From a virus (Duplodnaviria; Heunggongvirae; Uroviricota; Caudoviricetes), in IMG/VR virus record IMGVR_UViG_2562617151_000002, positions 1-16,232 of that record: 16,232 nucleotides of DNA, one strand, 5' to 3'. This document shows, in pieces, positions 1-14,936 of this stretch. The notes beneath the pieces were generated by a model. The model was not told the origin of the DNA and searched no databases. It saw nothing but the letters and a program-made list of their open reading frames with translations. The stretch's first letter is position 1. Every line of letters starts with the position of its first letter. The position numbers and the translations under genes are program-made.

Positions 1-1164
1 TTACGCCTTCTTTATATCCTCCATAATTCCACAGTGGGACATATTTGGGACATTATCACCAAAAATGTCGTCTATTTTCCTTGCATGCTCTGTCAAATGA
101 TTAGGCGCAAGGTGAGCATACCTACGAACCATTTCTATGGACTCCCATCCGCCCATTTCCTGAAGCACAGATAATGGGACGCCTGACTGGATCAGCCAGC
201 TTGCCCAGGTGTGTCTGAGGTCATGGAAACGGAAATCTTCAATTCCTGCACGACGACAAGCTGATAGCCATGATGTCTTGCTGTCGATGCGCATCTTCCT
301 GACCGCAGGCGTTGATGTTCCATCTGCTCGCTTAGCCGCCTTGGTATGTACAAACACCCATTTGTGATGCTTGCCTATTTGATCACGCAACACTTTACAG
401 GCGGTATCGTTCAGCGCCACACCAATGGCGCGGTTTGATTTGCTCTCTTCTGGATTCACCCAGGCAACTCGTCGCTGCATGTCGATTTGTTGCCATTCCA
501 GATTTATGATGTTCGACTTTCTCAGACCAGTTGCCAGCGCAAACTTGACGACAGATTTCAGTGGTTCGGGGCACTCATCAATAAGGCGTTTTGCTTCCTC
601 CTTTTCCAGCCATCTGACTCGCTTGTTTCTGACCGCTGGTATCTTGATGACAGGCGCTTTTTCCAGCCACTTCCAGTCGCGTTCTGCAGCACGGAGAATG
701 GCCTTTATCATGGCAAGATGCTTTGCCTTTGTCTGAGTTGATACTGGCTTTGGTTCATAAACAGGCGGTTCTTTACCTTTCCTGATGGCGGCCTGAACTT
801 TCTGTTTCCATATTTCTTTCGTCTTTCTGTTATGCATTCTGCTTACAGCAGAGTAAATCTTTGCCTCCGAGATATCTTTAAGCCTTATACCCTCAAAATG
901 TTCAAGCCAGAACTCAATCCGGCTTTTATCTGAATCGAGAGATTTTTTATCAGCTTTTTCCTCAAGCCATCTTAGGCAGGCCTCTTCAAAAGTGACATCA
1001 GGTAAATCCCCTAGCTTTTCTACTCGCCAGAGTTCTGCTTTTCGCTTGTCGTGCAACTCCTGAGCTTGCCGCTTGTCCTTTGTGCCAAGAGATTCCTTAA
1101 TTCGTTTCCCGCCCGGGAGCGAATACGAGGCATACCATATTTCATTTCTGCGGAAGAGTGACAT
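1..1164 (-). CDS. int: Phage tyrosine integrase (lambda Int family)
   Basis: 387-aa ORF. Translation shows the tyrosine-recombinase catalytic pattern ([10 protein letters not shown] ... VRRYAHL with C-terminal Tyr). ATG at 1164-1162 preceded by GAGGAAAG. Its stop codon is the first codon of the window, so attL lies outside. Confidence 0.9.
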
Positions 1165-1391
1165 TTTCTTTCCTCTGTTATGCCATCACCCGCGCTCACC
1201 TGGACAGTATGCAGCGGAGACTGAAGCGCCGCAATGCAAGCTTGCCGTGTTGTGAGGTAAGGAGATTTTGGCTTGGTTGGATCTTTACGTGTTGCCTGTA
1301 GGCGGCCTGTTCGTATCCAGTTGGTGGCGGTTGGTCTGGATATCTTAAGAAACTGACAGGCCTCATCGAGTGTGAGGCTGTATGGCTCCAT
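1020..1391 (-). CDS. xis: Excisionase-like small DNA-binding protein
   Basis: ATG at 1391-1389 shares a base with the stop of the upstream ORF (TAATG). N-terminus [31 protein letters not shown] resembles small wHTH excisionases. The frame stays open to 1020, overlapping the first 144 nt of int, so the real C-terminal extent is uncertain. Confidence 0.6.
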
Positions 1392-1696
1392 TATTTCACC
1401 TCTTGCTGTGTCATTGTTGAAAAATGGATACCAGCTCGTTGCTGCCAGACGATCCAACCGAGAGTCATATCCCATGCCATGTATTCGTTATCGCCGTTTT
1501 TTACTCTCCGACGATCTACTAAGTCACCGAAACGCTTTTCCATGAATAATTCATAGGCTTCGCGTTCATCTGGCTCTACTTCCAGAGATACGAGTGCGAT
1601 TTCATAAGCACGGCGCTCAATATCGTCTCGAACCTCTAGGCTGCTGATTCGTTCTTTGATTTCTTTAATCAGTTCTTTATTGGTAAATGTGGTCAT
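1391..1696 (-). CDS. Hypothetical phage protein (acidic, 101 aa)
   Basis: ATG at 1696-1694 overlaps the stop of the upstream ORF (TAATG), and its own stop overlaps the xis start, so it is translationally coupled in the leftward operon. No recognisable motif. Confidence 0.5.
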   Translation of the reverse strand: MTTFTNKELIKEIKERISSLEVRDDIERRAYEIALVSLEVEPDEREAYELFMEKRFGDLVDRRRVKNGDNEYMAWDMTLGWIVWQQRAGIHFSTMTQQEVK

Positions 1697-2058
1697 TATG
1701 CTCCAGCCTCCGGTGCTTTTGGCATTACTGCCCAGTGAGTGATATTGAAGTTTTCAAGGTCCCCGACCTGAAATGTCCACTGCCATTCTCCGGTTTCTTT
1801 TTGTCCCCAGGTGTACCAGAGAGAACGCCAGCCAATCAGCCAGCCTTCTCCATTAGCATCAAATAACAGAACACTTTCATTTGCTGGTGGCAGTTCAGCT
1901 GACACTGGTATTATTTTGTTTTCCAGTGCCGCACATTTAGCTTCAAGCGCGTCGAATTTACGTAACAGGTACTCAGCATTTGTTTCATTCACTTTCAGAT
2001 CTCGCGGTACACATTTCCCGCGAAGAAACCCTTCCATTTCGAAAACATTCATGCGCAT
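1696..2058 (-). CDS. Hypothetical phage protein (120 aa, Trp-rich C-terminus)
   Basis: ATG at 2058-2056 is the first gene of the leftward operon. C-terminal GEGWLIGWRSLWYTWGQKETGEWQW pattern resembles small lambdoid b-region/Ea-type proteins. Assignment is by position only. Confidence 0.5.
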   Translation of the reverse strand: MRMNVFEMEGFLRGKCVPRDLKVNETNAEYLLRKFDALEAKCAALENKIIPVSAELPPANESVLLFDANGEGWLIGWRSLWYTWGQKETGEWQWTFQVGDLENFNITHWAVMPKAPEAGA

Positions 2059-2180
2059 TTGCGTAACTCCGATAACTCGTTAAAACGTTCCATAAACATC
2101 CCGTAACCGCAATGCGTCGAATGTTTATCAGCTTAACGTTGCGAAGCTTCAGGCTGCGGCATTTTCTCAACTGTCAGATT

Positions 2181-2240
2181 CTGACCCGTCAAAATCTGAC
2201 GCATCAAAATCTGACCCGTCAAAATTTGATGCGTCGAAAT
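2181..2240. repeat. Four tandem 15-bp iteron-like repeats
   Basis: Units read directly: CTGACCCGTCAAAAT, CTGACGCATCAAAAT, CTGACCCGTCAAAAT, TTGATGCGTCGAAAT. Each carries a 10-bp near-palindrome (TGACNNGTCA) followed by an A-tract. Partial units flank both sides. Confidence 0.6.
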
Positions 2241-2260
2241 CTGGCAAAAAAGCGGGTTTT

Positions 2261-2320
2261 CACCCGTCAGAATCTGGCGGGGATCCGTCAGTAAAATCAA
2301 AACATGATCCGTCAGATAAA
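2261..2320. repeat. Additional CCGTCAG half-site repeats
   Basis: CCGTCAG occurs at 2264-2270, 2285-2291 and 2309-2315, each followed by A-rich sequence. Looks like a continuation of the iteron array. Confidence 0.4.
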
Positions 2321-2814
2321 AAACCTTCTCGTCCGGACGCTTCGCAACCGGACACGCAGACGGCTGAACAGGATTTTTTAACTCGCCATCCTGATGCGGT
2401 TGTATTCAGCCCTAAAAAGCGCCAGTGGGGGACGCAGGATGATTTGACCTGCGCACAGTGGCTCTGGAAAAAAATCATCGCCCTGTACGAGCAGGCTGCC
2501 GAATGTGACGGCGAGGTGGTTCGTCCCAAAGAACCGAACTGGACAGCCTGGGCAAACGAAATTCGCCTGATGTGTGTGCAGGATGGTCGTACTCACAAAC
2601 AAATCTGCGAGATGTACAGCCGCGTCAGCCGCGATCCGTTCTGGTGCCGTAACGTGCTCAGCCCGTCGAAGCTGCGGGAAAAATGGGATGAGCTTTCCCT
2701 GCGCTTATCGCCGTCCGTAAGCACGTACACCGAAAAACGCGAAGACGCGTACTTCAAAGCCAGTTACGACAACGTGGACTACAGCCAGATCCCGGCAGGA
2801 TTCAGGGGGTAATC

Positions 2815-3303
2815 ATGAGTCTTTTGAATGAAGTTCAGAAATTCATTGAAGCCCATCCGGGGTGTACTTCCGGAGACATTGCGGATGCTTTTGCAGGCTA
2901 CTCACGGCAGCGCGTTCTGCAGTCAGCAAGCAAGTTACGTCAGAGTGGGCGTGTGGCTCACCGTTGTGAAGGGGATACACGCAGACATTTCCCGCGCCTG
3001 ACTGAGAGAGCGCAGGAGCCGGAACCACAACCAGTTCGTGAAACCAGACCTGCGCGCAATTTCTATGTCGGCACTAACGATCCACGGGTAATTTTGTGCC
3101 TGACCCGCCAGGCTGAAGAACTGGAGTCCAGGGGCTTATACCGTCGTGCTGCAACCGTGTGGATGGCGGCATTCCGTGAAAGCCACTCCCAACCAGAACG
3201 AAACAATTTTCTGGCGCGTCGTGAGCGGTGTTTACGGAAAAGCAGCAAGCGCGCTGCATCGGGTGAAGAGTGGTATCTGTCAGGGAATTACGTGGGGGCT
3301 TAA
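2815..3303 (+). CDS. Putative regulator: N-terminal wHTH-like region plus PerC-like C-terminal domain
   Basis: ATG 2815 follows the upstream stop by 2 nt. C-terminal segment QAEELESRGLYRRAATVWMAAFRESHSQPERNNFLARRERCLR matches the PerC/Pch family signature (LE..GLYRRAA..W). N-terminus MSLLNEVQKFIEAHPGCTSGDIADAF looks like a small HTH. Confidence 0.5.
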   Translation: MSLLNEVQKFIEAHPGCTSGDIADAFAGYSRQRVLQSASKLRQSGRVAHRCEGDTRRHFPRLTERAQEPEPQPVRETRPARNFYVGTNDPRVILCLTRQAEELESRGLYRRAATVWMAAFRESHSQPERNNFLARRERCLRKSSKRAASGEEWYLSGNYVGA

Positions 3304-3956
3304 TGAGTAATAAATATTGCCAGGCGCTGGTGGAACTGCGGAACAAACCAGCCCATGAACTGAAGGAAGTGGGCGATCAGTGGCGCACGCCGGACAACAT
3401 TTTCTGGGGAATTAACACCCTGTTTGGCCCGTTTGTTCTGGATCTGTTCACTGACGGTGATAACACCAAATGTGCTGCGTATTACACGGCGGAAGACAAC
3501 GCGCTGGCGCATGACTGGTCAGAACGTCTTGCGGAGCTTAAAGGTGCTGCCTTTGGTAATCCCCCATACAGCCGCGCCAGTCAGCATGAGGGGCAATACA
3601 TCACAGGCATGCGTTACATCATGAAGCATGCCAGTGCCATGCGTGATAAAGGTGGGCGCTATGTTTTCCTGATCAAAGCTGCCACCAGCGAAGTGTGGTG
3701 GCCGGAAGATGCAGATCATATTGCTTTTATTCGCGGGCGTATTGGTTTTGAACTGCCTGCCTGGTTTATCCCGAAAGATGAGAAGCAGGTGCCGACAGGC
3801 GCTTTCTTCGCTGGTGCTATTGCTGTTTTCGACAAGACCTGGAAGGGACCGGCAATCAGCTACATCGGGCGCGATGAACTTGAGGCATGTGGTGAGGCGT
3901 TTCTGGCGCAGGTTCGCCAGCAGGCGGAAAAACTGGTCAGGGAGATGGCGGCATGA
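3303..3956 (+). CDS. Phage DNA N6-adenine methyltransferase (Dam-type, orphan)
   Basis: ATG 3303 overlaps the upstream stop (TAATG). Translation has W-TP near the N-terminus, FVLDLFTDGDN, and the catalytic NPPY motif (GNPPYSRAS). An in-frame GTG at 3270 is a less likely start. No restriction partner is adjacent. Confidence 0.8.
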   Translation: MSNKYCQALVELRNKPAHELKEVGDQWRTPDNIFWGINTLFGPFVLDLFTDGDNTKCAAYYTAEDNALAHDWSERLAELKGAAFGNPPYSRASQHEGQYITGMRYIMKHASAMRDKGGRYVFLIKAATSEVWWPEDADHIAFIRGRIGFELPAWFIPKDEKQVPTGAFFAGAIAVFDKTWKGPAISYIGRDELEACGEAFLAQVRQQAEKLVREMAA

Positions 3957-4279
3957 CGACGTTAACTCAATGCCAGCAGCAGGTGCTGGATATGCTGATT
4001 TCTTATCAGAAAGAACGTGGCTTCCCGCCAACCAATCAGGAGGTGGCAACCATGCTGGGATACCGTTCAGTGAATGCAGCGGTGGAGCATCTTCGCGCAC
4101 TGGAGAAAAAAGGCGTCATCACGATAAAGCGTGGTGTGGCCCGGGGGATCACGCTTCATACCGTGGTGAAGGACGACGACAGCGAGGCGGTCGGGATTAT
4201 CCGCTCACTGCTTGCCGGTGAGGAAAACGCCAGGCTGCGTGCAGCCCACTGGTTACATGAGAGGGGCCTGAAAGTATGA
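3953..4279 (+). CDS. LexA N-terminal DNA-binding-domain homolog lacking the S24 peptidase domain
   Basis: ATG 3953 overlaps the dam stop (ATGA). The 108-aa product aligns by eye with LexA residues 1-70 (LT..QQ.V.D.I...G.PPT..E.A..LGYRS.NAA.EHL.AL.KKGVI.I..G..RGI.L). The protein ends before any Ala-Gly cleavage site or Ser/Lys dyad. Confidence 0.75.
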   Translation: MTTLTQCQQQVLDMLISYQKERGFPPTNQEVATMLGYRSVNAAVEHLRALEKKGVITIKRGVARGITLHTVVKDDDSEAVGIIRSLLAGEENARLRAAHWLHERGLKV

Positions 4280-4671
4280 AGCTGATCCTACCTTTTCCGC
4301 CCAGCGTGAACACGTACTGGCGACACCCCAACAAAGGGGCGTTTGCTGGTAAGAGCCTGATAAGCGCGGCGGGGCGAAAATTCCAGAGCGCGGCGTGTGC
4401 AGCAATAGTTGAGCAGTTACGTCGTCTGCCGAAACCAACGTCGGCACCTGCTTCAGTGGAGATCGTGTTGTTTCCTCCGGATAACCGGATCCGCGATCTG
4501 GACAACTATAACAAGGCGCTGTTTGACGCCCTGACCCACGCGGGTGTGTGGGAAGACGACAGTCAGGTGAAAAGAATGCTGGTGGAGTGGGGACCGGTTA
4601 TCCCGGAGGGGAAGGTCGAGATCACTATCAGTAAGTACGAAAAAGCGAGTTGCAAATTAGCAACTCGGTAA
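4276..4671 (+). CDS. rusA: RusA-family Holliday junction resolvase
   Basis: ATG 4276 overlaps the upstream stop (ATGA). Translation has LPFPPSVNTYWR and RDLDNYNKALFDALTHAGVWEDDSQV, the RusA core with catalytic Asp residues. Confidence 0.8.
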   Translation: MKLILPFPPSVNTYWRHPNKGAFAGKSLISAAGRKFQSAACAAIVEQLRRLPKPTSAPASVEIVLFPPDNRIRDLDNYNKALFDALTHAGVWEDDSQVKRMLVEWGPVIPEGKVEITISKYEKASCKLATR

Positions 4672-4716
4672 CGGAATTGAGCAACACCCTAAATTTGGGT
4701 ATTACCTCGTTAAAGA

Positions 4717-4736
4717 TACTGTATTTATGAACAGTG
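4717..4736. promoter_or_regulatory. Near-consensus LexA operator (SOS box)
   Basis: TACTGTATTTATGAACAGTG matches the E. coli LexA box TACTG-(N10)-CAGTA, with CTGT at 4719-4722 and ACAG at 4731-4734. It sits about 100 bp upstream of the next gene start, next to a candidate TTGATA(4742-4747)-17-TAAGTT(4765-4770) promoter. Confidence 0.65.
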
Positions 4737-4833
4737 TATCCTTGATAACTATTAAAAATCGCAGTAAGTTCATCCTGCATCAACGAAAAGGGAGTGCAGT
4801 CCCGCTCGTGGATAAAAATTTGTGGAGAAACCA

Positions 4834-5649
4834 ATGAATCAGTTGCTTGTAATTGATGGCGTTTCTGTGCGCCAGTACTTCGAATCTAACTACTGTCTTA
4901 ACGACCTTCAGAAAGCAGCTCTTCTTGCCGCTGGTGAGAATCGCTCCTCCCGTTCGCTGGAAGTTCACGAGTTTATGCGTCGTCCTGAAACGAAGGCTCT
5001 TGTGGAATTATTGGAAGAAGAAACTACGGGAGATTCCCGTAGTATTCCTGTCATCACCATTCAGGGGCGCAATGGTGGGACGTATGTCTGTAAAGAGCTG
5101 GTCTATGCATATGCAATGTGGATCAGCCCGGCATTCAGCTTAAAAGTGATACGTACTTTTGATGCGCTTCATAATTCATCACCAGAAGAAACCACATCCG
5201 ACAAAATTAAATCCGGGGTCATTCTGCTTGAATCAGCAGCAAAGACTCTAAATCTGTCAAACTCCTCGAAACTTGGTGCATACCAGAAATTATCAAAGGT
5301 AGCTGGTCTTCCTGAACTTATGCCGATCTATGCCATTGATGCACCTGCTGATGCGCCAGATGGTTCAAGCCGCCCTACGCTGTCGCTGAGTGCACTGCTG
5401 AAGCAGTATGGTATCCGCCTGACGGCTAATCAGGCATATCACCAGATGGCGAAGCTGGGGATCGTTGAACAACGCGAACGATACAGCCGTACCGCGATTA
5501 ACAACATCAAAAAATTCTGGTCGCTGACCGCGAAAGGCTGCATGTTCGGCAAGAACATCACCAGTCCTGCAAATCCGCGCGAGACGCAGCCGCATTTCTT
5601 CGAATCCCGATTCCCTGAGCTGTTAAAGCTGCTCGATACCGTTCATTGA
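4834..5649 (+). CDS. Phage antirepressor-like protein (Bro-N/AntA-like N-terminus, KilA-C/ANT-like C-terminus)
   Basis: ATG 4834 has GGAG 6 nt upstream; the in-frame GTG at 4822 is less likely. N-terminal LLVIDGVSVRQYFESNYCLNDLQKAA ... GTYVCKELVYAYAMWISPAFSLKVI and C-terminal AKLGIVEQRE ... KGCMFGKNI resemble phage antirepressor domains. Confidence 0.6.
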   Translation: MNQLLVIDGVSVRQYFESNYCLNDLQKAALLAAGENRSSRSLEVHEFMRRPETKALVELLEEETTGDSRSIPVITIQGRNGGTYVCKELVYAYAMWISPAFSLKVIRTFDALHNSSPEETTSDKIKSGVILLESAAKTLNLSNSSKLGAYQKLSKVAGLPELMPIYAIDAPADAPDGSSRPTLSLSALLKQYGIRLTANQAYHQMAKLGIVEQRERYSRTAINNIKKFWSLTAKGCMFGKNITSPANPRETQPHFFESRFPELLKLLDTVH

Positions 5650-5650
5650 G

Positions 5651-6646
5651 GTGACCGTGAGAGCACTACTGACCCCTGAAATTGCCCCGCGTATGGGGAT
5701 CGTATTGTTCAGACCAGGTTCAGAGCTGATGCCCTTGTTTATGCAGGGGCGTGTCCTGCTGGAGCCTGAGCCGGAACGTTATTCATCTTTCGCCAGTGGT
5801 GCCGTTCCGGCGGCATCACAACCGCTGGCGGATGATCCTGCCGTTCGGGCCGTGTTCCGCAATGAGGCAGTGATCCGTCGTGCTGGTGGCGTGGAATGTC
5901 TTGAAAGCTGGTTACTTCGTGAAAAAGGCTGCCAGTGGCCTCATTCCGACTGGCACAGCGAGAACATGACAACAATGCGACACGCTCCGGGCGCAATCCG
6001 TCTGTGCTGGCACTGCGATAACCAGCTGCGCGATCAGTTCACGGAACGGCTGGAATCAATGGCAACGGATAACTGTGCCCGCTGGGTGTTGTCTGTTGTG
6101 CGTCGGGATCTCGGTTTTGATGACAGTCATGTTGTGACAATGCCGGAACTGTGCTGGTGGCTGATTCGTAATGATCTGGCGGATGCCTTACCGGAAAGTG
6201 CAGCCCGTAAGGCACTGAGATTACCGAAGCCTGTTGTGCCGTCTGTTACCCGGGAAAGTGACCTTGTGCCTTCGGTTCCTGCCACCAGCATCATCCAGGA
6301 TAAGGCGAAAAAGGTGCTGGCGCTGAAAGTGGATCCGGAGTCGCCGGAGTCTTTTATGTTACGCCCAAAACGTCACCGCTGGGTTAATGAAAAGTACACG
6401 CGCTGGGTTAAGACGCAGCCGTGCGCATGTTGTGGAAAACCTGCTGATGATCCCCACCACCTGATAGGCCACGGTCAGGGGGGAATGGGTACAAAAGCGC
6501 ATGACCTTTTTGTGTTGCCTTTGTGCAGAAAGCATCACGACGAGCTGCATGCGGATACCGTGGCATTTGAAGAGAAGTATGGCTCCCAGCTGGAGCTGAT
6601 ATTTCGTTTTATCGATCGCGCACTGGCGATTGGTGTGCTGGCCTGA
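5651..6646 (+). CDS. Prophage protein with C-terminal Cys/His HNH-like motif (DUF968-like)
   Basis: 331-aa ORF immediately after the upstream stop. C-terminus [23 protein letters not shown] ... [10 protein letters not shown] looks like a zinc-binding HNH-type module. Start is uncertain: GTG 5651, GTG 5657 or ATG 5693. Confidence 0.55.
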
Positions 6647-6663
6647 TTTTGTGGAGAAAGTTA

Positions 6664-7047
6664 ATGCGTGATATTCAGATGGTTCTTGAACGTTGGGGAG
6701 CGTGGGCGGCTAATAATCATGAAGATGTGACCTGGTCGTCCATTGCCGCCGGTTTTAAGGGATTAATTCCTTCAAAAGTAAAATCTCGCCCGCAATGTTG
6801 TGACGATGACGCGATGATCATTTGCGGGTGCATGGCCCGTCTGAAAAAGAACAACAGCGATTTACACGATTTATTAGTAGATTATTATGTATGTGGTATG
6901 ACATTCATGTCACTGGCAAGTAAGCATTGCTGCTCGGATGGTTATATCGGGAAAAGGTTACAGAAGGCTGAGGGCATAATTGAAGGGATGTTAATGGCAT
7001 TAGATATCCGGTTAGATATGGATATCGTTGCTAATAATTCTAATTGA
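6664..7047 (+). CDS. Late-gene antiterminator Q-like protein (small QuuD-type)
   Basis: ATG 6664 preceded by GGAG (6652-6655). The 127-aa product is Cys-rich ([23 protein letters not shown]), consistent with a zinc-binding Q. It lies directly upstream of the porin and lysis genes, as in DLP12. The ORF track extends to TTG 6649. Confidence 0.6.
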
Positions 7048-7079
7048 TATGCAATTGTTTACTAAAAGTTATTAAAAAT

Positions 7080-7098
7080 GGGGCGTGGAAACGCCCCC
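7080..7098 (-). terminator. Rho-independent terminator candidate for the porin gene
   Basis: 7-bp GC stem GGGGCGT/ACGCCCC with a 4-nt loop. On the minus strand it is followed by ATTTTTAAT. It lies about 140 nt downstream of the porin stop. Confidence 0.5.
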
Positions 7099-7184
7099 AA
7101 AATAAAGGGTAATATATAACAGAAGGTTTATATAGTAAGAAGCAAGGTAGTGCTTCTAAAGGAAGTGGCTTGAGGGCTCCACTT

Positions 7185-7224
7185 ATATGTTGCGGAGGCA
7201 AAGCCTCCCGCAACATATCTTTTT
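7185..7224 (+). terminator. Rho-independent terminator candidate downstream of Q
   Basis: Long inverted repeat ATATGTTGCGGAGGC / GCCTCCCGCAACATAT (one bulge) followed by CTTTTT on the plus strand. Confidence 0.55.
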
Positions 7225-7235
7225 CGTAAGTCAGA

Positions 7236-8318
7236 TTAGAACTGATAAACCAGACCTACAGCGACGATGTCGTCGGTATCAATACCAGCTGTTTTGGTAA
7301 ACTTACTATCGTCAATTAAGTTGATTTTGTAATCAACAAAAGTGGACATGTTTTTATTAAAGTAGTAAGTAGCACCGACATCGACATACTTGACTAAGTC
7401 TCGGTCACCATGAACACCAAGGTCTTTACCTTTTGACTGAAGGTAAGCAACAGATGGACGCAGACCGAAGTCAAACTGATATTGTGCTACTGCTTCAAAG
7501 TTTTGTGCTTTGTTTGCAATATGGTTATTACCAAAAACGGTCATATTCTGAGTTTCAGAATATGTGGTAGCCAGATAGATATTGTTCGCATCATATTTCA
7601 GGCCTGCAGCCCATACTTCCGCATTTTTGCCGGAGGCATTGAATTTGCTCTTACCATAGGCGACCTGACCGTCAGTGCGATCTGATTTAGCATAGGTTGC
7701 ACCCACGCCGAATCCTTCATACTCATAAGTAGTGGAGAAACCGAAACCATCACCATTGGCTTCAGTTACGTCAGTGCGGTCATTTTTACCCTGATACTGA
7801 GCAGCAAAGTTCAGGCCATCGACCAGACCAAAGAAGTCGTTGTTACGATAAGTTGCAACACCAGTAGTGCGACCAGTCATGAACACATCTGTTTGGGTCC
7901 AGGTATCACCACCGAATTCTGGCAGGACGTCAGTCCACGCACCGATGTCGTATGCTACACCGTAGTTACGGCCGTAATCGATTGAGCCGTAATCACCAAA
8001 TTTCAGGCCTGCAAATGCAAGACGGGTTTTGTCTTTGGAAGAACCTTGAGATTCAGCACGGTTGCCTTTGAATTCATATTCCCACTGACCGAAACCAGTC
8101 AGTTGATCGTTGATTTGGGTTTCACCTTTGAAGCCAAGACGGGCATAAGTAGTATCACCATCATCTGCATCATTAGAGGAGAAGTAGTGCTTGGCATTAA
8201 CTTTCCCGTATAGATCCAGCTTGTTACTGTCTTTATTATAAATTTCAGCTGCCTGAGCAGACATCGCCATCAGTACTGATGCAGCTACAGCAGAAATTGC
8301 CACTGTTAATTTTTTCAT
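7236..8318 (-). CDS. nmpC: Prophage-encoded general porin (OmpC/OmpF/PhoE family; NmpC/Lc type)
   Basis: 360-aa ORF with a signal peptide ([23 protein letters not shown]|AEIYNKD), porin motifs ([52 protein letters not shown]) and C-terminal VGLVYQF. It sits between Q and the holin on the opposite strand, as nmpC does in DLP12 and lc in PA-2. The exact symbol is uncertain. Confidence 0.85.
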
Positions 8319-8745
8319 TGTACGCCCTTTTTTTTGAACTATTATTAAAAAATGATGTCACTGCGCGATAAATATTCATCTAATCAATGCGATTATTTCA
8401 AGATGTAAGTTTTAGTTTCTCATTTAATTTGTGAAGTAGATCTCTATTTTTATCTAAACCTTTTCTATCTAATCCTATTCATGGCTCTTGTTTGAACGAA
8501 AATAAATCTATTAGCTAATTTATATTAATGGCACTTATTTATAAGAGATCTATAATTCTTTAGCTTAATTTAAACAAACTAAAAATAACATCGGAAATTA
8601 TTCATTGGTTATTTGTTGAAGTTTTCTTATGTATTTGTGGTGGTGTTTTGAACACTCGGTGGCATTCTCACAAATATCATTTAGTAGTTTACGTACGTAA
8701 AAAATTGGTTATGCTGTTAAGAGTGGTTACTTCGTCACACAGCTT
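8319..8745. promoter_or_regulatory. AT-rich non-coding region upstream of the porin and lysis cassette
   Basis: About 430 bp with no ORF of 60 aa or more and many A/T runs (8340-8640). Probably holds the porin promoter (minus strand) and possibly a late promoter, for example TTGAAC at 8648-8653 with AAATAT about 18 bp downstream. Confidence 0.4.
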
Positions 8746-8775
8746 AAACCCGCCGTCGAGCGGGTTTTTCCATTT
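8746..8775 (+). terminator. Rho-independent terminator candidate about 130 bp upstream of the holin (tR'-like)
   Basis: Stem AACCCGC/GCGGGTT (8747-8753 / 8760-8766) with loop CGTCGA, followed by TTTTCCATTTTTT on the plus strand. Confidence 0.5.
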
Positions 8776-8907
8776 TTTGAGTCTCGATATTAGCTGATAA
8801 CCCAATACCTGAGTTATTCACTGACTCCGAATCTGTTACGTTTCTGCCTTTATTGCGATACGTAGTATCCCCTTAATTTACACCCGCTTTGTCTGCGAGG
8901 TGGGGTT

Positions 8908-9123
8908 ATGAAATCCATGGATAAGTTAACAACGGGTGTCGCCTATGGCACCTCAGCAGGTAGTGCCGGATACTGGTTTTTACAGCTGCTAGATAAAGTC
9001 ACGCCCTCACAGTGGGCGGCAATTGGAGTGCTGGGTAGCCTGGTATTTGGCCTGCTGACGTACCTGACAAACCTTTATTTCAAGATTAAAGAAGATAAGC
9101 GCAAGGCTGCGAGAGGTGGATAA
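8908..9123 (+). CDS. S: Class II holin, phage-21 S-type (pinholin) with dual-start motif
   Basis: 71-aa ORF beginning MKSM (Met1 and Met4). Two hydrophobic segments and a basic C-terminus ([13 protein letters not shown]). Stop overlaps the endolysin start (TAATG). Confidence 0.85.
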
Positions 9124-9620
9124 TGCCTCCATCATTACGAAAAGCTGTTGCTGCTGCTATTGGTGGCGGGGCTATTGCTATAGCATCTGTGTTAATCACT
9201 GGCCCAAGTGGTAACGATGGTCTGGAAGGTGTGAGACATAATCCTTACAAAGACATAGTTGGTGTATGGACTGTATGTTACGGGCATACAGGAAAAGACA
9301 TCATTCCCGGTAAAACGTATACCGAAGCAGAGTGCAAAGCCCTCCTGAATAAAGACCTTGCCACTGTCGCCAGACAAATTAACCCGTACATCAAAGTCGA
9401 TATACCGGAAACAACGCGCGGCGCTCTTTACTCGTTCGTCTACAACGTGGGTGCTGGCAATTTCAGAACATCGACGCTTCTTCGCAAAATCAACCAGGGC
9501 GATATCAAAGGCGCATGTGACCAGCTACGTCGCTGGACATACGCTGGCGGTAAGCAATGGAAAGGGCTGATGACTCGCCGTGAGATTGAGCGTGAAGTCT
9601 GTTTGTGGGGGCAGCAATGA
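9123..9620 (+). CDS. R: SAR endolysin (T4-lysozyme-like muramidase, R21-type)
   Basis: N-terminal Gly/Ala-rich signal-anchor-release segment [30 protein letters not shown], followed by a lysozyme catalytic region ([25 protein letters not shown]). 165 aa. Confidence 0.9.
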
Positions 9621-10054
9621 GCAGGTTAACCGCGATTATCTCCGCTCTGGTTATCTGCATCATCGTCTGTCTGTCATGGGCTGTTAATCATTACCGTGAT
9701 AACGCCATTACCTATAAAGAACAGCGCGATAAAGCCACGTACATCATCGCTGACATGCAGAAGCGTCAACGTGACGTAGCAGAACTCGATGCCAGATATA
9801 CAAAGGAGCTTGCTGATGCTAACGCGACTATCGAAAGTCTCCGTGCTGATGTTTCTGCTGGGCGTAAGCGCCTGCAAGTCGCCGCCACCTGTGCAAAGTC
9901 AACGACCGGAGCCAGCGGCATGGGCGATGGAGAAAGCCCAGGACTTACAGCAGATGCTGAACTCAATTATTACCGTCTCCGAAGTGGAATCGACAAGATA
10001 ACCGCGCAGGTTAACTACCTGCAGGAATACATCAGGACGCAATGCCTGAATTAA
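9617..10054 (+). CDS. Rz: Rz i-spanin
   Basis: ATG 9617 overlaps the endolysin stop (ATGA). N-terminal TM segment ([20 protein letters not shown]), then a coiled-coil periplasmic domain. The ORF track extends to GTG 9605. Confidence 0.8.
9816..10001 (+). CDS. Rz1: Rz1 o-spanin lipoprotein, embedded in Rz in the +1 frame
   Basis: ATG 9816 preceded by AAAGGAG (9802-9808). Lipoprotein signal [20 protein letters not shown], then a Pro-rich mature region ([13 protein letters not shown]). Lies entirely within the Rz coordinates. Confidence 0.7.
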
Positions 10055-10083
10055 TTTTTTTGCAAATCACAAAGTCCATTTAA

Positions 10084-10107
10084 TGAGCCTCGCGATGCGG
10101 GGCTTTT
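10084..10107 (+). terminator. Terminator candidate after Rz (first of two)
   Basis: Hairpin GAGCCTCGC-GAT-GCGGGGCT followed by TTTTT. Confidence 0.45.
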
Positions 10108-10114
10108 TGCAATA

Positions 10115-10139
10115 AATGCGTACCGCAACGCATGTTTTT
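10115..10139 (+). terminator. Terminator candidate after Rz (second of two)
   Basis: Stem ATGCGT/ACGCAT with loop ACCGCA, followed by GTTTTTT. Confidence 0.55.
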
Positions 10140-10255
10140 TACACCGAACCTGCCCCTTTGGAATGGGCCTTTGAGGATACCAGTTAGTGCTGGCGAGCCT
10201 CGGTGGGCTGGTTTCCTGTGCGGCAAAGGTTCATTTCAAAGAGTAGGTACACGCT

Positions 10256-10753
10256 ATGAAATCATTAACCCTCTTCAATCAACCAATTCGTATCGGTGAA
10301 GATGGCATGATCTGCCTCACTGATATGTGGAAAGCCAGTGGTAAAAGTGAATCTGAATCGCCTTACCACTACCTGCGAAACAAGCAGACCAAAGAGTTCT
10401 TAGCCGAGCTGGAGAAAAACCACGAATCTGTGGTTTTTACTGAGCGCGGTGTACACGGTGGAACATATGGCGGGAAGTTTGTTGCTTACGATTATGCGGC
10501 TTGGTTAAACCCCGGGTTCAAGTACGCGGCCTATAAAGTCCTCGATGACTACTTCACCGGAGAACTTCAGCATCGCAACAGCTTAAGTGCGCAGCTCAAC
10601 ATGAAATGTCATGAGTTTGACCAGAAGAAAGACATGGCGAGCTTCTGCGGACAAGGGCTGGCAGCATGGCGCTATACGAAGCCAGTGTTGGTCGCTGAGA
10701 TTAACTCCCTGGCTAACCAGCTGCAGATTACGATCCCCGGGCTTCCGGGATGA
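10256..10753 (+). CDS. KilA-N domain protein
   Basis: ATG 10256 preceded by AGAGTAGG. Translation FNQPIRIGEDGMICLTDMWKASGK ... GTYGGKFVAYDYAAWLNPGFKYA fits the KilA-N/APSES-type fold pattern. Occupies the post-lysis position where bor sits in DLP12. Confidence 0.7.
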   Translation: MKSLTLFNQPIRIGEDGMICLTDMWKASGKSESESPYHYLRNKQTKEFLAELEKNHESVVFTERGVHGGTYGGKFVAYDYAAWLNPGFKYAAYKVLDDYFTGELQHRNSLSAQLNMKCHEFDQKKDMASFCGQGLAAWRYTKPVLVAEINSLANQLQITIPGLPG

Positions 10754-11007
10754 GTGATCGTGTTATTGAATGCGCCTCCAGAGCGGGGCGCGACTTCTCA
10801 GAGTTCATGAAAGGCGAGAAGGGCATGATGGAAGCATTGGCCTCGGTGGATGAGTTTGGCGAGCAGCTGCGCCTCAACGGCTGTGTCAATCATCACTTTG
10901 TTAGCTACATGATGCGGAACTCGATCATGCAGGCATTCATGGACATGGCAAAAGCCGAGAGGAAAGAAGAGCGCCGGCGTAAGCGAGCGGAAGCAAAAGC
11001 GAAGTAG
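10750..11007 (+). CDS. Hypothetical protein (85 aa) with basic C-terminal tail
   Basis: ATG 10750 overlaps the KilA-N stop (ATGA). C-terminus KAERKEERRRKRAEAKAK. No recognisable family. Confidence 0.5.
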   Translation: MSDRVIECASRAGRDFSEFMKGEKGMMEALASVDEFGEQLRLNGCVNHHFVSYMMRNSIMQAFMDMAKAERKEERRRKRAEAKAK

Positions 11008-11293
11008 CCATTACAAAGCCTATCTACGGGTGGGCTTGATAATGGCTTATACCCTACACGGGATAACTTAACTGATATCCCTTTTAAAGGATAAAGGTAT
11101 TCAAGCCTGACACATCATGCGCTGTATCGTCGCCGTGTTCCCGTATTAACAGAGACCGTAGCCCGACGGGGAACTCCTTCTGCGCGAGTGTGCGGGAATA
11201 ATCAAAAACGATGCACACCGGGGTTACCGGGTACACATATTTCATCATGCCAGCGAGTCCGGTTCTGGCACGGAAGAAACCGGACGTTATGAT

Positions 11294-11704
11294 TTAGTGC
11301 GGAAATATTTGTGTAGTGTTCTGAATGTTCTCAGTAAAGAGTAATGAATTATCAAAGGTATAGTAATACCTTTTGTTTTCGTGGATATTTGTAATCCATC
11401 TGAAAACCCCTGCTGTAGCAAGATTTTTCCTGTATTCGTAAAATGATAACTCTCCTGATTTGAATCCTTTTAAGGTGGCTTCTATAAGGCATTTATTTTT
11501 TGAAAATCTTACATTTACAACCTTACCCTGTCCTTTTATTAAAACCGTATTATCGTTTTCAAGAACAAGATGAATATTCTCTGTGGCTAAATAGTAAATG
11601 TAATGTGAGACATTGTGACGTTTTAGTTCAGAATAAAACCAGTGATAGTTTAAATTATTTCGCACTTTATCGAATATTTGTTTAAAAATGGCAACCTGAG
11701 CCAT
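11294..11704 (-). CDS. AT-rich cargo gene, hypothetical (possibly YbcV-like envelope-protein family)
   Basis: Visibly lower G+C than its flanks. The ATG at 11704-11702 has GGAAGG 8 nt upstream and gives 136 aa; the ORF track starts 5 codons earlier at 11719. Opposite strand to the late operon. The family guess rests on position and size only. Confidence 0.5.
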
Positions 11705-11761
11705 TGTAGTACCTTCCATGTGATATGAGGGGGCGTAGTCTGCACGATTATCTAGATTGCT

Positions 11762-11995
11762 TCAATCTGGTCTAACCTGTTTTCTGAGCAATTCAGTAAT
11801 GTCACTCTTTTCTTTGTTTGCTTCAGGCGAAACTCTTTTTTCTGAGCACAGTCTCCGGCGGCAGGCTTCAATGACCCAGGCTGAGAAATTCCCGGACCCT
11901 TTTTGAACAAGAGCGATGTTAATTTGTTCAATCATTTGGTTAGGAAAGCGGATGTTGCGGGTTGTTGTTCTGCGGGTTCTGTTCTTCGTTGACAT
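11762..11995 (-). CDS. Small basic ribbon-helix-helix-like putative DNA-binding protein
   Basis: 77-aa ORF. N-terminal basic stretch then IRFPNQMIEQINIALVQKGSGNFSAWVIEACRRRL looks like an Arc/MetJ-type strand-helix-helix. Lies 42 bp upstream of the AT-rich gene on the same strand. Confidence 0.45.
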   Translation of the reverse strand: MSTKNRTRRTTTRNIRFPNQMIEQINIALVQKGSGNFSAWVIEACRRRLCSEKRVSPEANKEKSDITELLRKQVRPD

Positions 11996-12059
11996 GAGGT
12001 TGCCCTGTATTCAGTGTCGCTGATTTGTATTGTCTGAAGTTGTTTTTACGTTAAGTTGA

Positions 12060-12376
12060 TGCAGATCAATTAATACGATACCTGCGTCATAATTGATTAT
12101 TTGACGTGGTTTGATGGCGTAGATGCACGTTGTGACATGTAGATGATAATTATTATCATTTTTCGGGTCCTTTCCGGCGATCCGACAGGTTACGGGGCGG
12201 CGACCTCGCGGGTTTTCGCTATTTATGAAAATTTTCCGGTTTAAGGCGTTTCCGTTCTTCTTCGTCGTAACTTAATGTTTTTATTTAAAATACCCCCTGA
12301 AAAGAAAGGAAACGACAGGTGCTGAAAACGAACTTTTGGGCCTCTGTCGTTTCCTTTCTCTGTTTTGGGCCGTGGA
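12060..12376. other. cos: Lambda-type cohesive-end site (cosQ-cosN-cosB)
   Basis: From my recollection of the lambda genome ends: ...CCGACAGGTTACG followed by cosN GGGCGGCGACCT at 12175-12186, then the cosB region CGCGGGTTTTCGCTATTTATGAAAATTTTCCGGTTTAAGGCG... up to the nu1 start, with only a few substitutions. Confidence 0.85.
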
Positions 12377-12383
12377 ATGAACA

Positions 12384-12457
12384 ATGGAAGTCAACAAAAA
12401 GCAGCTGGCTGACATTTTCGGTGCGAGTATCCGTACCATTCAGAACTGGCAGGAACA
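12384..12457 (+). pseudogene. nu1: Terminase small subunit nu1, 5' stub (first about 25 codons only)
   Basis: ATGGAAGTCAACAAAAAGCAGCTGGCTGACATTTTCGGTGCGAGTATCCGTACCATTCAGAACTGGCAGGAACA matches the lambda nu1 start (MEVNKKQLADIFGASIRTIQNWQE). Identity ends after 12457 and the frame stops soon after. Confidence 0.85.
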
Positions 12458-12661
12458 CCGGGCAGCATGGCGGACAGTCGGTCGCAGGCGTCCGGGAAGT
12501 TTGAGCAGAATAACCATGTGGTGATTAACAACGACGGCACGAACGGGCAGATAGGTCCGGCTGCTCTGAAGGCGGTGTATGACATGGCCCGCAAGGGTGC
12601 CCGTGATGAAATTCAGACACAGATGCGTGATGGTGGCCTGTTCTCCGGAGGTGGACGATGA
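12458..12661 (+). pseudogene. H: 3' remnant of tail tape-measure gene H
   Basis: Sequence after the junction encodes ...SQASGKFEQNNHVVINNDGTNGQIGPAALKAVYDMARKGARDEIQTQMRDGGLFSGGGR, and its stop overlaps the M start (ATGA) as in lambda. It is in a different frame from the nu1 stub. Confidence 0.8.
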
Positions 12662-12987
12662 AGACCTTCCGCTGGAAAGTGAAACCCGGTATGGATGTGG
12701 CTTCGGTCCCTTCTGTAAGAAAGGTGCGCTTTGGTGATGGCCATTCCCAGCGAGCGCCTGCCGGGCTGAATGCCAACCTGAAAACGTACAGCGTGACGCT
12801 TTCTGTCCCCCGTGAGGAGGCCACGGTACTGGAGTCGTTTCTGGAAGAGCACGGGGGCTGGAAATCCTTTCTGTGGACGCCGCCTTATGAGTGGCGGCAG
12901 ATAAAGGTGACCTGCGCAAAATGGTCGTCGCGGGTCAGTATGCTGCGTGTTGAGTTCAGCGCAGAGTTTGAACAGGTGGTGAACTGA
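12658..12987 (+). CDS. M: Minor tail protein M (intact)
   Basis: The 109-aa product (MKTFRWKVKPGMDVASVPSVRKVRFGDG...SAEFEQVVN) matches lambda gpM from memory over essentially its full length. Confidence 0.9.
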   Translation: MKTFRWKVKPGMDVASVPSVRKVRFGDGHSQRAPAGLNANLKTYSVTLSVPREEATVLESFLEEHGGWKSFLWTPPYEWRQIKVTCAKWSSRVSMLRVEFSAEFEQVVN

Positions 12988-14936
12988 TGCAGGATAACAG
13001 CGCACAGGCGGCAGCGGCCTCGCAGACTGCATCGGCAAACTCCGCAACAGCAGCTAAAAAATCAGAAACCAACGCGAAAAATAGCGAGACAGCCGCAAAG
13101 ACGAGCGAAACCAACGCAAAGTCCAGCCAGACGGCAGCGAAGACCAGCGAAACGAATGCTAAAGCCAGTGAAACTGCAGCAAAAAACAGCCAGGTTGCAG
13201 CAGCCCAAAGCGAGAGCGCGGCAGCCGGTTCTGCGACTTCAGCAGCTGGATCAGCAACTGCTGCGGCTAACAGCCAGAAAGCTGCGAAGACGAGTGAAAC
13301 TAACGCAAAGTCCAGCCAGACGGCAGCGAAGACCAGCGAAACGAATGCCAAAGCCAGTGAAACTGCGGCGAAAAGCAGTCAGGATGCAGCAGCCCAAAGC
13401 GAGAGTGCTGCAGCTGGTTCTGCAAGCGCGGCGGCTGCTTCTGCCACTGCATCAGCCAACAGTCAAAAAGCAGCAAAAACCAGTGAAACCAATGCAAAGA
13501 CAAGCGAGACTGCAGCGGCGAACTCGGCGAAAGCATCGGCAGCAAGCCAGACGGCAGCTAAAGCAAGCGAAGATGCAGCCAGAGAGTACGCAAGCCAGGC
13601 TGCGGAGCCGTATGAATATGTCTTACAGCCGCTGCCTGATGTGTGGATACCGTTTAACGATTCGCTGGATATGATTACGGGCTTTTCGCCATCATATAAA
13701 AAAATTGTTATTGGTGACGATGAAATAACGATGCCTGGCGACAAGATTGTTAAGTTTAAACGTGCATCGAAAGCAACCTATATTAACAAATCTGGTGTGC
13801 TGACAGAGGCTGCCATTGACGAGCCACGATTTGAACGTGATGGCCTGCTTATTGAGGGGCAAAGAACAAACTACATGCTCAATTCGGAAAGCCCTGCCAG
13901 TTGGGGGCGATCGTCAAATATGGATGTGCCCGAAACTGGGACGGATAGTTTTGGTTTTACCTATGGAAAGTTTGTCTGTAACGATTCTCTGATTGGGCAA
14001 ACCTCAGCCATTAATATGGCATCAATTGCTGCAACAAAGTCAGTTGATGTCTCAGGCGATAATAAATACGTGACAACCTCATGTCGTTTTAAAACAGAAC
14101 TGCAGGTAAGGTTGCGTATCCGGTTTGATAAATATGACGGTAGCGCAACAACTTTTCTTGGTGATGCGTATATTGATACACAAACGCTTGAAACTAATAT
14201 GACAGGCGGCGCTGCCTCAAGGATTACAGCGAGAGTCAGAAAGGACGAAGCTACCGGATGGATTTTTGCAGAGGCAACAATTCAGGCAATTGATGGGGAG
14301 TTAAAAATAGGTTCTCAGATACAGTATTCTCCTAAGCAGGGCGGGGCAACCGTATCTGGTGACTATATTTATCTGGCCACCCCACAAGTAGAAAATGGGC
14401 CTTGTGTATCATCTTTTATTATATCAGGAACGACGGCGGCGACCCGTGCAAGTGATATGGTAACTATTCCCGCAAGAAACAATATTTATAAACAACCTAT
14501 CAGTGTTCTTATTGAAGTTAATAAGAATTGGGATATTGTGCCAAACGGAGCACCAAGAATTTTTGACCTGAACGCAACATCATCATTCGCTGAAGAGTCT
14601 TTTATATTTGCATTCCGAGGGCCGACATCAACAGTTCTTCCTGGATCGGCATATGTTAGTGTTGGTTCCCCGTCAAGAGGAACTGGTAACAATGAAGTTG
14701 TAAACACTGGAATATATGGAGTTAAAATAGACAAAGATGGCGGCTTAGCAGCGTCGCTGAATGGTAACATTTCATCAAAAGTCAGTACTTCATGGGGTGG
14801 TGCTATAAAATCAACGGCAATAAGAATAGGAGGGCAGACAACTGCCGGAACGAGGCATTTGTTTGGACACATCAGGAATTTCAGAATATGGCATAAAGAA
14901 TTAACTGATGCGCAAATGGGGGAGAGTATTAAATGA
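12987..14936 (+). CDS. Side-tail-fibre-like protein; apparent fusion of the L start to an internal Stf repeat region, with a lectin-like C-terminal domain
   Basis: First 10 nt ATGCAGGATA equal the lambda L start (MQD), then the sequence switches to Ala-rich AKTSETNAKSSQTAAK repeats typical of Stf. The C-terminal approx 400 aa are non-repetitive and end in GHIRNFRIWHKELTDAQM, resembling the last strand of LamG/concanavalin-like jelly rolls. ATG overlaps the M stop. Confidence 0.7.
   Translation: MQDNSAQAAAASQTASANSATAAKKSETNAKNSETAAKTSETNAKSSQTAAKTSETNAKASETAAKNSQVAAAQSESAAAGSATSAAGSATAAANSQKAAKTSETNAKSSQTAAKTSETNAKASETAAKSSQDAAAQSESAAAGSASAAAASATASANSQKAAKTSETNAKTSETAAANSAKASAASQTAAKASEDAAREYASQAAEPYEYVLQPLPDVWIPFNDSLDMITGFSPSYKKIVIGDDEITMPGDKIVKFKRASKATYINKSGVLTEAAIDEPRFERDGLLIEGQRTNYMLNSESPASWGRSSNMDVPETGTDSFGFTYGKFVCNDSLIGQTSAINMASIAATKSVDVSGDNKYVTTSCRFKTELQVRLRIRFDKYDGSATTFLGDAYIDTQTLETNMTGGAASRITARVRKDEATGWIFAEATIQAIDGELKIGSQIQYSPKQGGATVSGDYIYLATPQVENGPCVSSFIISGTTAATRASDMVTIPARNNIYKQPISVLIEVNKNWDIVPNGAPRIFDLNATSSFAEESFIFAFRGPTSTVLPGSAYVSVGSPSRGTGNNEVVNTGIYGVKIDKDGGLAASLNGNISSKVSTSWGGAIKSTAIRIGGQTTAGTRHLFGHIRNFRIWHKELTDAQMGESIK
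13116..13234. repeat. Intragenic direct repeat, copy 1 (about 119 bp)
   Basis: GCAAAGTCCAGCCAGACGGCAGCGAAGACCAGCGAAACGAATGC... recurs 189 bp downstream with a handful of substitutions. Confidence 0.7.
13305..13423. repeat. Intragenic direct repeat, copy 2 (about 119 bp)
   Basis: Near-identical to 13116-13234. The 189-bp offset equals 63 codons, so the protein repeat stays in frame. Confidence 0.7.

Follow-up and report, generated by a model that had tools for sequence, protein, structure and literature searches.

The closest known counterpart of the locus described here is yfdO (oweS) of CPS-53 (KpLE1) in Escherichia coli K-12, which is annotated as a defective phage replication protein O. 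In gSELEX on the K-12 genome, the LysR-type regulator SrsR (YgfI) gives its highest peak at the "spacer" between yfdO and yfdP, and it has been found by gel shift and by a 66-bp DNase I footprint that SrsR binds this spacer, at four boxes of the type TCAGATTTTGa, and that it activates the yfdONMLK operon (Kobayashi et al., PMC9181523). In that study the region is treated as intergenic, the words "iteron" and "pseudogene" are absent, and "origin" does not occur in the sense of a replication origin. Deletion of yfdO has been reported to lower H2O2 resistance (PMC3105296). A second K-12 gene, ymfN (oweE + aaaE) of e14, is a chimera of replication protein and terminase. In phage lambda and in the Stx phages, O consists of an N-terminal domain that binds DNA and a C-terminal one for recruitment, the stretch of the gene that encodes the linker holds the origin repeats, and specificity is exchanged as a module of N-domain plus repeats (PMC7466680).

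The DNA analysed here, called the window in what follows, is the whole stretch of 16,232 nucleotides of an IMG/VR virus record. It contains an open frame without a start, inside which tandem repeats are found, and a sequence-only reading had proposed that this is what remains of an O-like replication gene from which a deletion removed the 5' DNA-binding part and left the origin. The results below support this interpretation in essence, with corrections. The features are collected in Table 1.

The truncated initiator gene and the 5.2-kb deletion

The frame that begins at position 2096 is preceded by a TAA stop (2093-2095) and remains open for 238 sense codons until the TAA at 2810-2812. The earliest ATG, GTG or TTG in this frame is the TTG at 2444, its codon 117, so that the first 116 codons lack a start, just as the sequence-only reading had stated. 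The 238-residue translation matches the PHROGs family phrog_391, "replication initiation O-like", with an E value of 3.8e-96 and only over profile positions 78-298 of 298, which agrees with the O-like gene that had been proposed. When the window is compared with phage genomes by megablast, the sequence from 2103 and rightward is 98-100% identical to genes that bear the annotation replication protein O or primosomal protein, and the phages among these matches include PhiR49_1, SfIV, SfII and SKA5. The gene belongs to the SfII/SfIV/PhiR49_1/e14/CPS-53 group of lambdoid phages in E. coli and Shigella, and its phrog_391 relatives include gp41 of SfIV, "O" of PhiR49_1 and the remnants in e14 and CPS-53.

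The intact initiator gene of PhiR49_1 has 313 codons, and the intact homologue has an HTH_36 winged-helix domain at residues 23-70 (E 4.2e-11), with weaker matches to DnaD_N and to MarR-type winged helices. Identity with the intact genes starts at G2103, which is the second base of codon 78, and initiator codons 1-77, which hold the whole HTH_36 DNA-binding domain, are absent from the window. From these intact relatives the lost 5' part can be pinpointed as 77 codons, and since the HTH_36 codons are deleted, the window holds a fragment of a phrog_391 initiator and not a functional member of the family. Searches of the 238-residue fragment against Pfam and NCBIfam gave no usable match; in particular, Phage_rep_O (Pfam PF04492) is unmatched by the fragment at E <= 0.01 and by the intact homologue at E <= 1, and a PDB sequence search with the intact protein returned weak MarR-type winged-helix matches only. 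The protein is O-like in architecture only, and it is not a homologue of lambda O.

How the 5' part was lost is seen when the window is aligned with PhiR49_1 (blastn and junction alignment). Window positions 1-2105 correspond to PhiR49_1 15-2119 with 99.9% identity, while 2103-12457 correspond to 7323-17675 with 99.98% identity. The two alignments overlap by the trinucleotide GTA, from which it follows that 5,203 bp of PhiR49_1 are missing from the window. According to the annotation of PhiR49_1, the lost segment comprises most of yfdR as well as yfdQ, yfdP, three small ORFs, cI, cro, ymfL and ymfM, and the same gap also took the initiator 5' end (codons 1-77). The segment that carries cI and cro has also taken the early promoters of the immunity region with it. 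Where a deletion of the whole immunity, N and recombination region had been proposed, the loss therefore extends to cI, cro and the flanking early genes, and the interval as annotated in PhiR49_1 contains neither an N gene nor recombination genes.

Table 1. Features of the window around the deletion junction and the repeat array
Feature	Position in window	Strand	Basis
Prophage integrase gene, left end of element	1-1164	-	Pfam Phage_integrase, E 5.5e-47; PhiR49_1 15-1178
yfdT-like gene, surviving leftward early gene	1391-1696	-	PhiR49_1 annotation; 99.9% identity
yfdS/DUF551 gene, surviving leftward early gene	1696-2058	-	Pfam DUF551; PhiR49_1 annotation; 99.9% identity
Left stump of yfdR (5'-deoxynucleotidase), last 18 codons and stop	2049-2105	-	PhiR49_1 yfdR at 2063-2599, minus strand
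Deletion junction with GTA microhomology, PhiR49_1 2119 joined to 7323	2103-2105		blastn and junction alignment
Truncated O-like initiator gene, second base of codon 78 to codon 313 and stop	2103-2812	+	100% identical to PhiR49_1 7323-8032
Five contiguous 15-bp units with alternating GTCARA / TCTGAC half-sites, presumptive origin core	2171-2245	+	Tandem Repeats Finder and mismatch search
Four SrsR boxes: TCAGAATCTGA, TCAGATTTTGA (twice), TCAAATTTTGA	2174-2229	-	K-12 box list, PMC9181523
Sixth unit (2264-2278), CCGTCAG half-sites (2285-2291, 2309-2315) and A-rich stretch	2264-2315	+	
122-codon ORF from TTG, equivalent of K-12 YfdO, initiator C-terminal domain only	2444-2812	+	K-12 yfdO, 369 nt, same position
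yfdN-like gene of the PerC family	2815-3303	+	Pfam PerC, E 7.5e-9
Phage Dam methyltransferase gene, after the yfdN-like gene	to 3956	+	Pfam Dam, E 9.6e-46

The start-less frame could in principle belong to a gene that is not decapitated, if it were expressed by a programmed frameshift from the ATG at 2112 or from a non-canonical start. There is indeed an ATG-initiated ORF of 60 codons in the +1 frame (2112-2294), which overlaps the 5' part, but this ORF results from reading the repeat array in another frame, and it has no family match; in the intact relatives, moreover, the 2096 frame continues without a break from a start 232 nt upstream, which is absent here. An undamaged gene is, for these reasons, hardly credible.

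The junction itself rests on one sequence, since the exact 40-nt junction of the window is found in no other searched record: neither the 5,426 complete E. coli genomes nor IMG/VR, the GTDB species representatives or the JGI metagenomes contain it. Such an absence is what an assembly or chimera artefact at 2103 would give, but the 3-bp microhomology is typical of illegitimate recombination, other decay deletions are present in the element, and more than 20 other records have deletions that end at the same nucleotides. An artefact must on this evidence be considered very unlikely.

One further record, the IMG/VR prophage L054 (3561-3565), shares the left breakpoint of the window (CCCGTA|, PhiR49_1 2119) and has another right partner, at 3172; its join reads CCCGTAAC, the same as in the window. 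Since L054 uses the same left breakpoint with another partner, deletions may have ended repeatedly at the left site, too; alternatively, an intermediate like L054 may have given rise to the window.

The repeat array and its possible roles

Tandem Repeats Finder reports a repeat with period 15 and 4.3 copies at 2180-2243. When the window is searched with CCGTCAAAATCTGAC and up to three mismatches are allowed, six units are found on the plus strand, at 2171, 2186, 2201, 2216, 2231 and 2264. Two of these are palindromic and match the minus strand too, which gives eight matches where 0.44 would be expected (18-fold), and none occurs elsewhere in the 16 kb. The heptamer CCGTCAG occurs at 2264, 2285 and 2309, i.e., three of its six copies in the window (1.2 expected) are located here. 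The description in the sequence-only reading, four tandem 15-bp units plus CCGTCAG half-sites, was accordingly real and slightly conservative, and the repeats sit, as in the lambda precedent to which it had pointed, within the initiator gene, in the segment that encodes the linker between the N- and C-domains.

What the repeats are for is suggested by relatives in which the N-domain is of another type. In phage mEp460_4F5 the C-domain is about 98% identical from SRPDASQPD onward, while the N-domain is unrelated, and a different array, with a period of 23 bp and 5.4 copies, is found at the same place. In phage 2H10 the N-domain is only 39% identical, and a third kind of repeat lies directly behind it. 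Since the repeats at this place change when the N-domain does, a co-exchange seen in these two comparisons, the 15-bp array (2171-2315) is likely to be the phage origin, now orphaned.

Among 120 IMG/VR relatives the copy number of the array varies in steps of 15 bp (-30, -15, +15 and +30). In closely related sequences, to which the comparison is confined, 10 of 63 third-codon positions are polymorphic in the array region vs 72 of 220 in the coding sequence on either side (Fisher p = 0.011), which suggests constraint on silent sites and, like the variation in copy number, speaks for an origin. Variants of the array region are seen in L012, L013, L034, L045, L046, L051, L057, L078 and L085, where L085 has a different junction within the array and the array of L012 is interrupted by the end of an inserted sequence, which is presumably that of an IS3-family (IS629-like) element, judging from its terminal sequence.

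If the array is the origin, its units would be the sites bound by the lost N-domain, and the array would now be an orphan cis element, which could fire only when a co-resident phage with the same type of N-domain supplies an initiator in trans. The region from N-domain to array is unbroken in 1,575 of the 5,426 complete E. coli genomes, so that matching helper initiators are common.

The same repeats are also SrsR sites. The SrsR boxes are the reverse complement of the 15-bp repeat units, and of the four TCAGATTTTGC-type boxes on the minus strand at 2174-2229, three are identical to boxes in the K-12 list and one is off by 1 nt. Window and CPS-53 are 98% identical over 2103-2460 and differ by 1 nt in the array. 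Judged by this alignment, the K-12 "spacer" is the 5' part, without a start, of a decapitated initiator gene, and the strongest SrsR site of K-12, published as lying in an intergenic spacer, is an array in such a gene. Two explanations offer themselves: the orphaned repeats of an origin have been taken over by a host regulator and now work as a promoter element, or a live phage origin is bound by SrsR.

This raises the question whether the repeats could be an operator or activator site for SrsR or another regulator and nothing else, with the phage origin elsewhere. The SrsR footprint and activation at the K-12 repeats are the only direct biochemistry (PMC9181523), and SrsR, a host transcription factor and not an initiator, is the only protein demonstrated on them. 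Nor is there a clear AT-rich unwinding element adjoining the array: over 2190-2340 the GC content is 0.40-0.48, with A-runs at 2246-2251 and 2316-2321, and no sharp AT-rich block is seen. Against a purely regulatory role, the repeats occur inside the initiator gene in intact, inducible phages, mEp460_4F5 and 2H10 swap them together with the N-domain, as expected of initiator sites and not of sites for a conserved host factor, and the architecture matches the ori-in-O arrangement of lambda and the Stx phages (PMC7466680). A regulator-only array is, when all this is taken together, improbable. The sequence-only reading had counted as evidence against itself that the repeats be footprinted by a regulator and that, at the same time, the downstream translation resemble no initiator. 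SrsR does protect the repeats in K-12 (PMC9181523), but the similarity to initiators is strong, and for this reason the reading stands despite the footprint.

The array thus probably serves two roles, as origin and as SrsR-controlled element. In CPS-53 it is rightward transcription, of yfdO and of what lies behind it, that SrsR activates. The PerC-like gene and the Dam gene lie downstream of the truncated initiator (2815-3956) and share its orientation, and in the window the array is, by analogy with K-12, probably also a host-controlled promoter region for the 122-residue fragment, the PerC-like protein and Dam. A consensus scan of 1900-2900 gave no sigma-70-like promoter.

A recurrent deletion endpoint at codon 78

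The right-hand breakpoint of the window is not random, for deletions have ended there repeatedly in this initiator allele. At least 22 junctions with different partners end inside PhiR49_1 7319-7328, i.e., within about 9 bp around GGGTA|ACC (codon 78), where the sequence of the allele reads GGGTAACC. To exemplify, three different left ends meet one right end in the window (2119 to 7323), in CPS-53 of K-12 (3998 to 7324) and in E. coli OHT76-1 (2283 to 7321), and IMG/VR, metagenomes and GTDB genomes contribute further left partners at 2089, 6128 and 6186 and in the cro gene of another immunity type. L115 has an additional deletion with an endpoint 27 nt further left.

Deletions extend rightward from the same site as well. 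In ymfN of the K-12 element e14, codons 1-78 are retained and followed by the terminase gene, while the corresponding deletions lead into a tail-fibre gene in E. coli E2 and into a KilA-N gene in P276M. IMG/VR scans anchored on the left flank give 14 distinct rightward junction types, with partners spread over the PhiR49_1 map from about 9.3 to 37.5 kb. In all, at least 7 left and 14-15 right partners abut one site, and junctions of this kind are present, besides in the window, in L004, L005, L054, L090, L126, L129, L130, L133, L134 and L147-L162.

The scans of IMG/VR were anchored on the site and are hence biased to it, while the 200-bp segments 7223-7422 and 7061-7260, searched in complete E. 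coli genomes, are unbiased. The segment around the site (7223-7422) finds 2,003 records, of which 424 lack a match covering at least 80%, and the sampled boundaries all fall at 7319-7330. For the gene start and N-domain (7061-7260), 93 of 2,010 records lack such a match, with sampled boundaries at the gene start only. In the equivalent segment of the mEp460-type initiator the figure is 2 of 167, and the boundaries are not clustered. The initiator allele is present in about 2,000 of the 5,426 complete E. coli genomes, and roughly one in five of the records that match the site lacks an unbroken copy.

A shared breakpoint could also reflect a single ancestral deletion, inherited by all carriers, with no hot spot at all, and junctions of the K-12 CPS-53 type are in fact widespread and identical. 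Each of the at least 7 left and 14-15 right partners would, however, need an event of its own, and the deletions extend both ways from the site. The flanks of the window are moreover 99.9-100% identical to PhiR49_1, while those of other carriers are about 97.6% identical, which argues for separate deletion events. Common descent of all these junctions is therefore highly improbable, and recurrence at the site is what the data show.

The positions of the breaks are informative in themselves. In the rightward class, the departure from the intact gene comes first at 7326 in 11 of 14 types, and in the leftward class it comes first at 7323 in 5 of 7 types. From these modal positions it follows that the left piece normally extends to A7325 and that the right piece normally begins with T7324, so that the two overlap by TA. 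TA is present at the join in 14 of the 16 junctions with known partner sequence, and the partners often read GGNTA. These data fit a 2-nt TA stagger, GGG^TA^ACC, combined with microhomology repair, and they fit equally well two nascent 3' ends that meet, as at the leading-strand start point of an origin.

A nucleotide-precise fragile site at GGG-TA-ACC, where a staggered break or paired nascent 3' ends are followed by microhomology repair with deletion of either side, can tentatively be put forward as the cause, at slightly less than even chances. Such a site would lie about 65 bp to the left of the repeat array. The break might be the work of a sequence-specific enzyme, an endonuclease or a recombinase, whose cut leaves TA as a 2-nt overhang, or it might arise when the origin's own start point fires in an unexcised prophage; in either case microhomology repair would delete the DNA to one side or the other.

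Several other causes were considered and rejected. An imperfect hairpin of 28 nt (PhiR49_1 7294-7321), which adjoins the site and could stall replication, folds no better than shuffled sequences (z = -0.7) and leaves the rightward class unexplained. A TA-targeting element of the IS630/mariner type does not agree with the partners in e14 and L161, which lack TA, and no insertion sequence is seen at the site. The deletion in OHT76-1 joins the only two GGTAACC sites, as would fit a GGTNACC cut, but a cut of the BstEII/EcoO65I type (G^GTAAC^C) is at variance with the 11 of 14 rightward types that break after A7325 and not after C7327. A quasi-site for a Pin/Hin-type invertase has a poor half-site match, as compared by eye with the consensus sequences. 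Selection alone, against a prophage that replicates and kills its cell, accounts for O as the target and not for the same 2-9 nt, and a general property of ori-in-O is contradicted by the mEp460-type segment, broken in so few records.

Two observations at the site stand apart from the breakpoint statistics. The rightward deletions in e14 (L130 4671-6038), E. coli E2 (L133 from 2369 onward) and P276M (L134 2369-3352) are single annotated CDSs, in which the initiator start codon leads in frame into terminase, tail fibre and KilA-N, respectively; that all three chromosomal rightward deletions examined are in frame has a chance of about 1 in 27. In L062 (about 8520-8530, with O on the plus strand) a single base is deleted from the GGG run exactly at the hot spot, CCAGGTAACC, which shifts the frame of the initiator.

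The literature searched gave no relevant description of the hot spot, which thus appears to be undescribed as far as the searchable literature goes. If the fragile site is real, prophages of this group in E. coli have a recurrent and mechanistically specific route by which they lose replication and become cryptic, K-12 carries two of its products, ymfN of e14 and yfdO of CPS-53, and more than random decay is involved in the domestication of prophages in this large group of phages. The hot spot is also a defined sequence with which the responsible nuclease or replication intermediate can be sought.

The remnant element and its known counterparts

It is rather probable that these parts hold jointly, i.e., that a beheaded initiator gene, an orphan array which is the origin, an SrsR-controlled region and a recurrent breakpoint together explain the locus. 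Compared with PhiR49_1, the window has a second large gap (17676-30388, from Nu1 into the tape-measure gene; window 12457-12499, terminase to tape measure), with a stretch of 41 nt at 12458-12498 that has no match to PhiR49_1, and a third, from the tail tip into the side tail fibre gene (30887-37518, covering L, K, I, J, lom and the start of stf; window 12987-12996). To the right of both, the window is only about 94-95% PhiR49_1-like. Since it has suffered two or more large deletions besides the first, the element is to be counted as a cryptic remnant of an E. coli prophage, irrespective of whether it can replicate. As such it is a routine decaying prophage with a textbook counterpart in K-12; what goes beyond routine decay is that its array coincides with the SrsR boxes, and that its deletion endpoint is recurrent, bidirectional and precise to about 9 bp.

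Elsewhere in the element, a complete Gram-negative porin gene (7236-8318, minus strand; Porin_1, E 2e-151; OmpD in the PhiR49_1 annotation) is placed between the Q antiterminator gene and the lysis genes, on the opposite strand, and looks like lysogenic-conversion cargo. At 1020-1475 on the minus strand there is an ORF of 151 codons with an HTH_17 (excisionase-type) domain, which overlaps the integrase gene by 145 nt. No CDS is annotated for this region in PhiR49_1, and all that OHT76-1 has in the vicinity is a partial helix-turn-helix pseudogene of shorter length; the excisionase probably starts within the ORF.

In comparison with CPS-53, the window holds the same gene, with 98% identity and with the cut at an identical nucleotide, GGGTA|ACC in codon 78, and it shares the repeat array, the 122-codon TTG ORF and the downstream yfdN and methylase genes. 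The left partner of the deletion differs, being the start of yfdP (PhiR49_1 3998) in CPS-53 and the inside of yfdR (2119) in the window. The integrase and attachment site are different too, intS/argW in K-12, and in CPS-53 the Dam gene and everything beyond it are more eroded than in the window.

Both the division of the initiator into an N-terminal DNA-binding and a C-terminal recruitment domain, with origin repeats in the linker-coding part, and the exchange of specificity as an N-domain-plus-repeats module are shared with lambda O/ori-lambda and the Stx phages (PMC7466680). Unlike that of lambda O, the N-domain is HTH_36/DnaD_N-like, with no detectable homology, and the next gene is PerC-like and is not a P, DnaC-like or helicase gene. 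The repeat units have a length of 15 bp, while those of lambda are longer, 18-19 bp.

The e14 gene ymfN has the same initiator allele and the same break site as the window. K-12 in fact holds complementary halves of the initiator, the DNA-binding domain in ymfN of e14 (L130 4671-6038) and the repeats plus C-domain in CPS-53 (L005 6879-7600), so that YmfN might bind the CPS-53 array. In e14, codons 1-78 are kept, fused in frame to the gene for the large terminase subunit, and the array is lost, while the window keeps the array and the C-domain.
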